Assembly: GCF_003334815.1 (NCBI RefSeq)
Contig: NZ_QOWO01000040.1
Reading direction: 5' to 3' (one strand)
From: Escherichia coli
GTDB lineage: Bacteria > Pseudomonadota > Gammaproteobacteria > Enterobacterales > Enterobacteriaceae
Length of the DNA: 33,548 nt
Under the pieces are notes generated by a model, which was given only the letters and a program-made list of their open reading frames with translations, was not told the DNA's origin and made no database searches. Within the stretch, counting starts at the first letter, position 1; each line of letters starts with the position of its first letter. This document shows, in pieces, positions 2,377-3,315 of this stretch. Made by a program: the position numbers and the translations under genes.

Positions 2377-2932
2377 TTTCTCACGGAGGAGTTTAACTCT
2401 ATGAAACAATGCATCTTTGATTTAGGCATCATGAACTATGATGCCGTCATTACATGGACTGTACCAGGGGTCAGTTTGGATATCGAAAATTATTGTACGT
2501 TAAGGTTGTTTTTTGACCTTGTCGATCTTAACTGATCTCAAACGACGAAACTTACCTGAAGCCGGTATCCGGTTGTTTTTCCAGATTAGTGTTACTGGCT
2601 GGTATAGCATTTAATATTGGCAGGAAAAGTAATCTGATTGTTTTTGTCCTGGCAATGTTGCTCCCAGTAACAACGGTTTTCATTTTTATGTTACTTGGCG
2701 GCAAGATCTATATATGCTGAACCGTTGCGGTCGTCCGGTTCAGATTCTTTCTCGTGGGTTACAGTAACATTGGCACTGTTGTTTTGTTTGTATGGTATAT
2801 AGCATGGCAAAAAGAACGTTCTAAAGAAGAAGAGTTTAAATCAAGTATAAAACCAGAAGATTTTGTGAAGTGAAGTATGGCTATGGTTAATTTTATGTAA
2901 AAATATATAGAGTCAGCTAAAATGAGGAGAAT

Positions 2933-3286
2933 ATGAAAAATAAAGTTGAACATATACGGAAAATGTTAACTACATCCATCACTGGCATATGTACTATAGT
3001 GATGTCCTCTGTCGCAATTGCATCTGAAACAAAGGCTATTAGCCTGAATGATTTTTATGGTACGGAACCACAATATCTAATGCTATTTGAGCCTAAAACA
3101 AAATGCAAATATCAAGCAAAAGCTATTAAAGATGAAAAATCGGTAGAACGATGGAGATTTGTTATAATAAGTCGTGATTGCAATGGCATTGTCCAAAAAG
3201 GAGATGAAATAAAATACAAATCGGTTTTACCAGATAATAACACCGAAAATTTTATAGCGTCGGGTTCATTATTTACAATTTATTAA
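2933..3286 (+). CDS. Hypothetical exported protein (N-terminal signal-like hydrophobic segment); AT-rich gene
   Basis: ORF track; RBS gaggag upstream; terminator downstream. Confidence 0.45.
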   Translation: MKNKVEHIRKMLTTSITGICTIVMSSVAIASETKAISLNDFYGTEPQYLMLFEPKTKCKYQAKAIKDEKSVERWRFVIISRDCNGIVQKGDEIKYKSVLPDNNTENFIASGSLFTIY

Positions 3287-3287
3287 A

Positions 3288-3315
3288 AAATAAAAGCCCG
3301 AAAGGGCTTTTGATT
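3288..3315. terminator. Bidirectional intrinsic terminator (aaagccc gaaa gggcttt) between convergent genes
   Basis: Stem-loop with A-run and T-run on either side. Confidence 0.6.

Follow-up and report, generated by a model that had tools for sequence, protein, structure and literature searches.

What kind of DNA separates the partition genes from the replication block of an IncX4-type plasmid, and what would the small protein encoded there do for its carrier? The window, i.e., the whole stretch of DNA analysed here (33,548 nt), is a 33.5-kb contig of an IncX4-type conjugative plasmid, and 94% of its first 25 kb aligned to IncX4 plasmids at ~98.5% identity. The segment 2400-3312 had been proposed to be a horizontally acquired, AT-rich islet, which encodes one exported 117-aa protein and ends at a bidirectional terminator (hereafter the original prediction). 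Its composition agrees with this in part: the segment has 35.0% GC compared to 40.6% for the plasmid (4.8th percentile of same-size windows on the plasmid), but the deviation is modest and concentrated in 2723-3314 (2nd percentile), the left third (2400-2722, 37.5-40% GC) not being distinct. The left neighbour is clearly less AT-rich than the segment (parA 45.5% GC, rhh 40.4% GC), whereas the right neighbour is nearly as AT-rich (DUF2726 36.0% GC, rep 33.3% GC), with a GC minimum of ~28-32% near 5000-5900. The gene of the 117-aa protein (p117) shows 31.9% GC and 23.7% GC3, the lowest values among the 39 long ORFs tabulated. Judged from its sequence, the segment is a composite of a split 71-aa gene (p71), a 120-bp transposon end, the stump of an 83-aa gene (p83) and the intact p117 gene (Table 1). 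The claim of one exported protein thus stands for the p117 ORF with its signal-peptide-like leader, but the segment also holds the p71 pieces, the Tn3-family end and the p83 stump.

Table 1. Features of the par-rep junction in the window (L-numbers denote compared loci).
Feature	Position	Strand	Basis or remark
RHH-like partner of ParA, 89 aa (left flank)	2107..2376	+	conserved IncX4 backbone
p71 5' fragment, 22 codons (two-TM membrane-protein gene, 71 aa)	2401..2466	+	identical to intact gene up to 2466 in L007, L008, L002
Solo Tn3-family (TnEc1) end, 120 bp	2467..2586	+	98-99% identity to TnEc1 ends in many plasmids, under tnpA annotation
p71 3' fragment	2587..2720	+	99-100% identity to intact p71 of 14 loci
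AT-rich accessory cassette, 592 bp, 33.1% GC	2723..3314	+	starts right behind the p71 stop codon and reaches to that of DUF2726
p83 3' stump, last ~35 codons (83-aa small membrane-protein gene)	2768..2873	+	95.3% identity to L001 683-788
p117, 117-aa precursor	2933..3286	+	ORF list; family alignment; AF2 model
Bidirectional intrinsic terminator, GC stem/GAAA loop	3291..3312	.	between convergent p117 and DUF2726 genes
DUF2726/DDP3-like gene (right flank)	3315..3842	-	PF10881 in gene calls; weak NF041452 DDP3 match

The left part of the segment (2400-2722) is, as far as its sequence tells, unrelated to the cassette that follows and represents a small IncX-associated gene that a transposon has interrupted. 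The ORF of p71 in the window continues into the transposon remnant and reaches a stop codon at 2535, leaving a pseudogene, and its 5' and 3' fragments are in different reading frames (net +104 nt). The remnant consists of the 38-bp terminal inverted repeat (2467-2504, GGGGTCAG...ACGTTAAG) and ~80 bp of the tnpA 3' end; the repeat (GGGG...TAAG) is continuous with the end of tnpA, as in a Tn3-family end, and the remnant stands in place of ~15 bp of p71 (junctions placed by alignment). Only one copy of the inverted repeat is present in the window, which makes the element a remnant and not a transposon. The same transposon-split p71 allele was found in L023. Probably p71 was knocked out by insertion of the transposon, which would later have been deleted down to its 120-bp end. 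Very large match counts for the segment might be read as a widespread conserved element, a reading that was rejected because the Tn3-family end caused these counts; caution is in place here, as the "islet" consists in part of remnants of a transposon and of genes. A hairpin at 2560-2574 inside the transposon stump was not more stable than shuffled sequences (z -0.8), and no polar terminator is claimed.

The cassette proper, comprising the p83 stump, the p117 gene and the terminator, occupies a variable slot between the partition genes (parA and the RHH gene) and the convergent DUF2726-p134-rep block. On the left, ParA (1385-2032) matched NF041546, and the 89-aa RHH-like gene, annotated as ribbon-helix-helix in some records, is 98.9-100% identical across 14 IncX4-type loci. 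On the right, the mosaic rep-proximal backbone begins with the DUF2726 gene, which is 96.6-99.8% identical among the p117-bearing loci (in PLSDB, at least 80% of it is covered in 443 records, and 456 records show at least 95% identity). Similarity to L002, L003 and L001 ends exactly at the cassette boundary in the alignments, the edges of the cassette fall on the stop codons of the adjoining genes, and 14 loci, the right flanks of which are mosaic, share the cassette DNA at 99-100% identity. Between 2300 and 3400 no inverted repeats were found and direct repeats were only short and at chance level, nor was there an integrase or recombinase at the cassette. With no flanking repeats or integrase, and with boundaries at stop codons, the cassette looks as if recombination had replaced one allele by another in a hypervariable slot.

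Other plasmids carry other cargo at the same place. In IncX4 plasmids the slot was found to hold a DUF2806 gene (mcr-1-type plasmids), an unannotated ~300-bp segment, or genes of 83, 71 and 140 aa, and all slot alleles are AT-rich (28-36% GC); the cargo known from IncX1/IncX4 comprises small membrane proteins of 71, 83, 93 and 140 aa and a Phd/YefM antitoxin. With this cargo p117 shares position, orientation and AT-richness, and most of the cargo genes encode, like p117, small proteins with a predicted location in the cell envelope. The sequences are unrelated, however, and p117 alone has a (predicted) cleavable signal peptide without a transmembrane segment; it is not represented in PLSDB at all. 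From these comparisons the par-rep junction of the IncX4 plasmid appears as a hypervariable, recombination-driven cargo slot. The p83 stump corresponds to the 3' end of WP_021526207.1 in L001, and in L009, which belongs to a divergent IncX lineage, the gene directly upstream of p117 encodes a small protein of 79 aa that resembles p83 in size and C-terminus (by eye, not scored); the stump is thus apparently the scar of a donor arrangement p83-p117.

The distribution of the cassette is peculiar. A blastn search ("distant" mode) of the 72,556 plasmids in PLSDB gave no match, and the p117 gene was found neither in 5,426 complete E. coli genomes nor, by tblastn, in phages. In draft assemblies of E. 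coli, Salmonella and Klebsiella the cassette is present on several hundred contigs, in almost invariant form; the p117 allele is therefore common in draft assemblies, yet invisible in curated complete-plasmid collections. Its absence from every complete IncX4 plasmid means that p117 is dispensable for plasmid function. Presence or absence across related plasmids had been suggested as a check of the horizontal acquisition, with a conserved backbone gene as the outcome that would speak against it; p117 is present in 0 of ~450 PLSDB plasmids (IncX4) that share the DUF2726 flank, and the slot alleles differ from each other. That p117 is nevertheless an old IncX backbone gene, which was lost from the well-sequenced plasmids rather than acquired, might be argued from its place beside DUF2726-p134-rep, which is the same in two IncX lineages with backbones only ~72% identical, and from the left flank, which accompanies it in every IncX4-type carrier at 99-100% identity. 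We regard this as highly improbable: in addition to the PLSDB result, the truncated p83 gene marks a left junction of the cassette, at least three other cargo alleles occur in the same slot, and in the divergent lineage (L009, ParA of which is only 43% identical to ParA of the window) the p117 gene shows 89% nucleotide identity and a dS of 0.27 compared to 72% identity and a dS of 1.87 in the adjacent DUF2726 gene, i.e., a synonymous divergence seven-fold below that of the neighbouring backbone gene. The low dS of p117 relative to DUF2726 indicates, at the sequence level, that the cassette arrived by lateral allelic exchange under purifying selection; it probably reached the IncX4 lineage via recombination with another IncX-type plasmid and is kept there by purifying selection. 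Horizontal acquisition, as originally predicted, can consequently be retained for 2723-3314 (absence from related plasmids, low dS), but this is not a classical insert, and 2400-2722 is a separate matter. Overall, a swappable cargo cassette that carries a small exported, envelope-acting protein is probably the best explanation of the locus.

Upstream of p117 a Shine-Dalgarno sequence (GAGGAG) is present at 2924-2929, and the terminator anticipated after the gene was confirmed on both strands: the hairpin, with an A-run on one side and a T-run on the other, folds with -12.9 and -13.4 kcal/mol on the two strands (z -3.4 and -3.8, respectively), and none of 200 shuffled sequences folded as well. 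An Rfam search of the segment found nothing. No credible promoter of its own was detected upstream of p117 in a relaxed sigma-70 scan, and because a convincing one is missing, transcription of p117 probably relies on read-through from par/p71.

The original prediction also raised the possibility of an H-NS-silenced target. In such a reading, the foreign AT-rich islet would be silenced by the chromosomal H-NS or by the plasmid H-NS paralogue, and p117 would be expressed only when the silencing is relieved. The cassette, with its 33% GC, and the base composition of p117 would suit such a target; moreover, the plasmid encodes its own H-NS (32787-33251), an H-NS gene is also visible in the p117-bearing loci and in most loci that bear relatives, and H-NS of IncX3 plasmids is documented to silence plasmid genes (PMC11915502). 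On the other hand, large parts of the plasmid, among them rep/oriV and several backbone genes, match the cassette in AT content, and p117 has no apparent promoter of its own that could be silenced. The motif TCGATAAATT is a high-affinity H-NS site, and a scan for it returned 65 matches compared to 61.7 expected, i.e., no enrichment, with just two 2-mismatch sites in the cassette. Silencing by H-NS is conceivable, though we would not expect it; it says nothing about the role of the protein and is compatible with the cargo cassette favoured above.

Does the ORF encode anything of current use? It might be a hitch-hiking or decaying gene and the islet recombination debris in a junk-tolerant slot, given that clear remnants (split p71, transposon stump, p83 stump) lie in the same slot, that no complete IncX4 plasmid carries the cassette and that several annotation pipelines call just a 68-aa product. 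The 68-aa database entries were considered as truncated p117 alleles and rejected: the DNA is identical and the full ORF intact, so that they represent an annotation artefact, in which many pipelines mis-call p117 as a 68-aa protein without its signal peptide. The full 354-nt ORF was intact in all 14 loci, including those annotated with 68 aa, and was identical or differed by one nucleotide. Against an 82%-identical allele, dN/dS was 0.31 for the whole gene and 0.22 when only the mature part was considered. Together with the strong Shine-Dalgarno sequence and the terminator, and with a conserved family at 20-37% identity that retains invariant Cys, Trp and Gly residues, these values make decay very unlikely.

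Inspection and a hydropathy profile of the p117 leader revealed basic residues (K2, K4, R9, K10) followed by hydrophobic residues 11-27 (peak at 13-29) and by A28-I-A30 before S31, with small residues at -3 and -1 as in Sec signal peptides cleaved by SPase I; residues 1-30 (nt 2933-3022) are the putative signal peptide. A lipobox ([LVI][ASTVI][GAS]C) was not found in p117, the only cysteine of the leader lying in T-G-I-C20 with Ile at -1. Export would follow the Sec pathway, and cleavage after Ala30 would leave a predicted mature protein of 87 aa (~10 kDa, all-beta) with a conserved pair of cysteines, Cys58 and Cys83, between which a disulfide may form across a beta-hairpin in the periplasm; it is in the periplasm that p117 would act as a ~10-kDa all-beta protein.

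The p117 family forms 13 clusters at 90% identity (6 at 50%). Invariant in the family alignment are F41, C58, Y60, C83, G111 and I116; an N-terminal hydrophobic leader is present in 10 of the 13 members, and in three members of 206-208 aa the domain comes after another region. The relatives are encoded in IncX, IncN and other plasmid-type loci near genes for H-NS, TopoIII, SprT, antirestriction and toxin-antitoxin (TA) functions; all loci are plasmid-type, and most of them have visible conjugation genes. No meaningful match to p117 was obtained in Pfam (none even at E up to 10), NCBIfam, PHROGs and PADLOC, and the family profile found nothing among PDB sequences (YebF and Cmi were absent at E values up to 10). 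By these searches p117 is a member of an unannotated family of (predicted) exported proteins found only on plasmids.

YebF and Cmi deserve a closer look, since a distant relationship would make p117 either a small immunity protein with a disulfide bond, which protects in the periplasm against a bacteriocin acting there, or a protein that leaves the cell through porins, as YebF does. The YebF/Cmi proteins (PF13995; NF041240; 2LQV) and the p117 precursor are alike in length (~117-118 aa), in having an N-terminal hydrophobic leader and two paired cysteines, and in the size of the exported domain (~10 kDa), and Cmi, the colicin M immunity protein, is described as a periplasmic protein of likewise 117 aa with an N-terminal hydrophobic segment, which depends on a disulfide formed by DsbA (PMC8469651). 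Three of the 13 family members, those with 206-208 aa, matched Pfam YebF (best i-E 5e-5) and NCBIfam YebF_not_Cmi (18-21 bits); YebF (2LQV) aligned locally with P0004 over "..KI.G.A.P...VSL.D..G", and hhalign of the family with YebF gave an E of 0.03 over 37 columns. But this weak local similarity is limited to the three long relatives, p117 and the nine other short members showing no YebF match, and the scores are far below the curated cut-off (21 vs 110 bits; hhalign probability 1.6%). The family domain extends ~55 aa past the end of the YebF model, and the cysteines differ in position and spacing from those of YebF/Cmi. The YebF/Cmi-type fold is a helix packed on a beta-sheet (cystatin-like). 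The model of mature p117 has no substantial helix, and the YebF family was not found among its structural neighbours. No cognate toxin or other bacteriocin gene was found near p117 or beside any family member. A YebF/Cmi-like protein is thus decidedly unlikely, and filing p117 under YebF was rejected because the lead is too weak.

A different lead came from structure prediction. An earlier AF2 model on a 3-sequence alignment (pLDDT 51) was too poor for use; in the model built on a 13-sequence alignment, the mature domain reached a pLDDT of ~80-94 and contained seven strands and only three helical residues. Foldseek searches of AFDB50 and PDB with this model listed VirB10/TrbI/DotG first, with a probability of up to 1.0 but E-values of only 0.1-1, and the AF2 model was judged to have the beta-barrel of the VirB10 C-terminal domain. 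The predicted fold is closest to this C-terminal barrel of VirB10, a subunit of the outer-membrane core of the type IV secretion system (T4SS), which makes the C-terminal beta-barrel of VirB10/TrbI/TraF/ComB10/TraB (PF03743; PDB 3JQO, 2BHV, 7O3J, 6GYB, 7OKN) the nearest known system. Both p117 (by its predicted export) and the VirB10 domain are periplasmic, and both are encoded on conjugative plasmids with secretion systems of the MPF-T type. At the sequence and profile level no similarity was found: none of the 13 family members matched TrbI (Pfam PF03743), hhalign gave a probability <1% with the VirB10 of the plasmid itself (21392-22510, 372 aa) and likewise <1% with a 39-sequence alignment of VirB10 C-terminal domains, and sequence-level homology of p117 to VirB10 was rejected on three profile-profile comparisons. 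Furthermore, mature p117 has 87 aa compared to ~190 aa in the VirB10 C-terminal domain; it lacks the bitopic architecture of VirB10, with its cytoplasmic/TM N-terminus, its proline-rich linker and the antenna helices that make up the OM pore, and has a predicted cleavable signal peptide instead, and its gene is located outside the T4SS operon, unlike that of VirB10.

Because the predicted fold is VirB10-like and the relatives all occur in plasmid-type loci, the most likely role of p117 would be an envelope-acting plasmid accessory function that touches the type IV secretion apparatus; for example, it might modulate or exclude conjugation, or protect its carrier when attacked in a T4SS-dependent way. 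Any specific role in type IV secretion is tentative and somewhat doubtful. More particularly, p117 and its approximately one dozen relatives might be secreted stand-alone mimics of the VirB10 barrel, which dock onto T4SS core complexes of their own plasmid or of a competitor and, as a decoy or cap, tune or block DNA transfer, entry of rival plasmids or T4SS-dependent phage infection. We consider such mimicry unlikely, but if true, it would define a new class of periplasmic factor for competition or exclusion between plasmids, with a swappable slot as its carrier. A VirB10-like fold that bears on function would point to modulation of type IV secretion from the periplasm; otherwise, p117 would simply be one more small hypothetical accessory gene. 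IncX4 plasmids are major carriers of mcr-1 and other resistance genes, and any factor that changes their transfer or their competition with other plasmids is of practical interest.

A functional parallel is offered by the entry-exclusion lipoproteins EexN and TrbK of MPF-T plasmids, small exported proteins of IncN, IncX and IncP, which act in the envelope on the incoming T4SS. The likeness of p117, a small protein predicted to be exported, is one of functional analogy only: no sequence relation to EexN or TrbK was found, and these are lipoproteins encoded inside the transfer region, whereas p117 has no lipobox and adjoins par/rep. An EexN-family gene is annotated in the IncX4 relatives of the plasmid.

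Aligned with related loci, the segment 2400-3312 reads as composite. The original prediction had placed in it one exported protein gene, and that gene (p117, encoding 117 aa) is indeed intact, but it shares the segment with the split gene of a two-TM membrane protein (p71), a transposon stump, and the stump of a second small membrane-protein gene (p83), which is followed by p117 and then by the terminator. Between the two p71 halves lies a sequence that matches, at 98-99% identity, the tnpA-proximal end of TnEc1, a Tn3-family transposon, and contains the 38-bp terminal repeat (GGGGTCAG...ACGTTAAG) and a tnpA 3' stump. 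Because only one copy of this repeat, and no second one, was found in the window, and because ~15 bp of target are absent at this point, it is what remains of a transposon deleted at a later time. Judged from these alignments, p71 is a pseudogene in the window; the gene is intact in L002, L007, L008 (related loci) and most other carriers, and the stump-bearing allele also occurs in one ENA metagenome contig (L023). The TnEc1 end inflates the number of plasmid matches to the segment into the thousands. The p83 gene is intact in locus L001.

Features of the p117 region and of the plasmid around it
Feature	Position	Strand	Remark
AgrB antisense RNA match (Rfam, 55.6 bits), close to 31-aa DinQ-like ORF	207-299; ~627-722	-; +	
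parA	1385-2032		left of segment
89-aa RHH-like gene	2107-2376		between parA and segment
p71 halves (71 aa)	2401-2466; 2587-2720		from alignment
TnEc1 stump, 120 bp	2467-2586		solo Tn3-family end
p83 stump, last ~35 codons of 83-aa gene	2768-2873		95% identity
p117	2933-3286	+	
Terminator hairpin	3291-3312	both	
DUF2726/DDP3-like gene	3315-3842	-	right of segment
134-aa gene	3977-4381	-	
Rep3-type initiator	4394-5266	-	
22-bp iterons ACCGAGGAAGTTATCATGTTTA	5500-5609		~5 tandem copies; degenerate copies at 5318 and 5478; adjoin Rep3 gene
300-nt direct repeat	6210-6509; 8290-8589		perfect; spacing 2,080 bp
Topoisomerase III	30413-32566		
H-NS paralogue	32787-33251		

The p117 gene is real. As had been proposed, its ORF is present (with GAGGAG upstream), residues 1-30 resemble a signal peptide (basic n-region, hydrophobic core, A-I-A before S31; hydropathy agrees), and terminator prediction picks out the hairpin behind it on either strand, with a stability far above that of shuffled sequences; no lipobox was found in the leader. 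Against the allele of locus L009 (82% protein identity), dN/dS is 0.31 overall and falls to 0.22 in the mature part. Every examined locus has the ORF intact, also those annotated as 68 aa. Many public annotations give a 68-aa product starting at Met50, with loss of the signal peptide (e.g., L018-L022, locus coordinates 4854-5207); in these loci the gene has identical DNA and an uninterrupted 117-aa ORF.

By its alignments the window is an IncX4-type conjugative plasmid: IncX4 plasmids match its first 25 kb at ~98.5% identity over 94%, and related records are typed as IncX4, MOBP and MPF_T. The AT-rich islet expected at 2400-3312 was recovered in part: the segment has 35.0% GC compared to 40.6% for the plasmid (4.8th percentile), but the low value is confined to 2723-3314 (33.1%), whereas 2400-2722 (37.5-40%) resembles its surroundings, and the right-hand neighbors are nearly as AT-rich (DUF2726 gene 36%, rep 33%, origin region down to ~28-32%). 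The iteron region, presumably the vegetative origin, is the most AT-rich portion of the plasmid. Among 39 tabulated long ORFs p117 has the lowest GC (31.9%) and GC3 (23.7%), and p117-family genes were lower in GC than their own locus in all six loci checked; alleles of all kinds in the par-to-rep slot between the RHH-like and DUF2726 genes are AT-rich (28-36%).

Comparing presence and absence across related plasmids, as envisaged in the original prediction, found p117 to be variable, with other cargo in the slot elsewhere: a DUF2806 gene in mcr-1-type IncX4 plasmids, p71 and an unrelated ~300 bp in L002, p83, p71 and a 140-aa gene in L001, and other small genes with a Phd/YefM antitoxin in IncX1 plasmids. 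In PLSDB the window's DUF2726 gene was matched at 95% identity or more in 456 records (443 over at least 80% of the gene), p71 at this level in only 12, and p117 in none (blastn, tblastn), nor was p117 found in 5,426 complete E. coli genomes. The exact protein is encoded on several hundred draft contigs of E. coli, Salmonella and Klebsiella, mostly of ~30 kb. Across 14 draft-contig loci the stretch 2723-3314 is 99-100% identical and the right flanks are mosaic (DUF2726 gene 96.6-99.8%, next intergenic region 86-99%, three rep alleles). The presence of at least three rep alleles among par-p71-p117 plasmids indicates that the DUF2726-to-rep region is itself mosaic in "IncX4-like" plasmids; the initiators compared (L007, L020, L025, L028 and window 4394-5266) fall into lengths of 281-290 aa and of 335 aa, with only ~29% identity between them.

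The most telling comparison on acquisition is with L009, a divergent IncX-like plasmid (identity of ParA 43%, DUF2726 66%, Rep 76%) with a p117 allele at the same position (89% nucleotide identity). A conserved backbone gene was rejected because dS is 0.27 for p117 versus 1.87 for the adjacent DUF2726 gene, and because p117 is absent from the 456 flank-matching PLSDB records. Upstream of p117, L009 encodes a 79-aa protein, p83-like in size and C-terminus, which would explain the p83 stump at the window's left junction. The limits of 2723-3314 are the stop codons of the neighboring genes, and no flanking repeats or recombinase were found, which argues against a self-mobile insert. From these sequence comparisons we conclude that 2723-3314 is probably an accessory cassette swapped between IncX lineages by recombination; the suspected horizontal acquisition is thus supported for this narrower stretch, but the mechanism would be different, an exchange of cassette alleles at a slot with variable content.

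Profile searches recovered six clusters of relatives (exhaustive, 1.84 billion representatives) and 13 clusters (5.8 billion proteins), with 20-37% identity to p117, invariant F41, C58, Y60, C83, G111 and I116, and near-invariant W74 and P100. Short members have a hydrophobic N-terminal leader straight before the shared domain; three of 206-208 aa (P0004, P0010, P0012; L031 8001-8627, L032 8001-8621) have an extra Cys-rich N-terminal region. Every relative's locus is plasmid-type. L009 and L012 are IncX-like contigs, and L004 represents IncN plasmids of the pKPC-SMH type, in which the neighbors are ssb, SprT-like and antirestriction genes. An orphan methyltransferase and hok adjoin the gene on Buttiauxella contigs (L013-L015), as do TrbM and TA modules on Salmonella plasmids (L016, L017); L031 and L032 are plasmids with coupling protein, SNase, TopoIII, H-NS and SprT.

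No match to p117 was found in Pfam, NCBIfam, PHROG, PADLOC or PDB sequences. AlphaFold2 (13-sequence alignment) confidently predicts an all-beta mature domain of seven strands (pLDDT ~80-94). In it one hairpin has C58 and C83 at its open end, a placement that fits a periplasmic disulfide. Foldseek (AFDB50, PDB) placed VirB10/TrbI/DotG on top with probability near 1 and E-values of only 0.1-1; every profile- or sequence-level test of this link was negative, and p117, half the size of a VirB10 C-terminal domain, has none of that domain's antenna helices. This VirB10-like fold, as predicted by the model, is the sole unusual element. The most likely specific role, at a low probability, is interaction with a type IV secretion core complex. 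Its main alternative, an immunity or secreted role like that of YebF/Cmi, is more improbable still: the three long relatives match YebF weakly over the linker and the shared domain's first strands (best i-E in Pfam 5e-5; in NCBIfam 18-21 bits, cut-off 110) and 37 columns of the family profile can be aligned with E. coli YebF (E 0.03, probability 1.6%), but p117 itself has no YebF match, and YebF and Cmi are absent from the structural neighbors of its model. Cmi, a periplasmic protein of 117 aa that gives immunity to colicin M, is a YebF relative (PMC8469651). We file p117 in neither family; it is new and unannotated within the broad class of small exported accessory proteins of plasmids. Best supported is a Sec-exported, disulfide-bonded periplasmic beta-protein that would serve a plasmid accessory function at the envelope level.

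No credible sigma-70 promoter was found in the 210 bp 5' of p117, and only 54 bp separate it from the upstream gene in L009, so p117 is probably the last cistron of a par-proximal transcript that would end at the bidirectional terminator. A scan for the H-NS high-affinity motif showed no enrichment. The silencing by H-NS that had been suggested is plausible in general, given AT-rich DNA, a plasmid-encoded H-NS and the published precedent of silencing in IncX3 (PMC11915502).

Elsewhere on the plasmid, the AgrB RNA and the DinQ-like ORF together resemble a toxin-antitoxin module of type I, and a DqlB toxin is annotated at this site in IncX4 relatives. Three database entries annotated as VirB10/TrbI (P0074, P0080, P0065; ~120-135 aa), with no sequence kinship to p117, match parts of the C-terminal domain of the plasmid's VirB10 at 56-95% identity; they may be either fragments or true short proteins derived from VirB10. 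The 300-nt repeat copies coincide with two GC-rich islands (~55%), enclose ORFs for a DnaJ-like protein (171 aa) and for proteins of 180 and 83 aa, and may represent a duplication or a recombination substrate.
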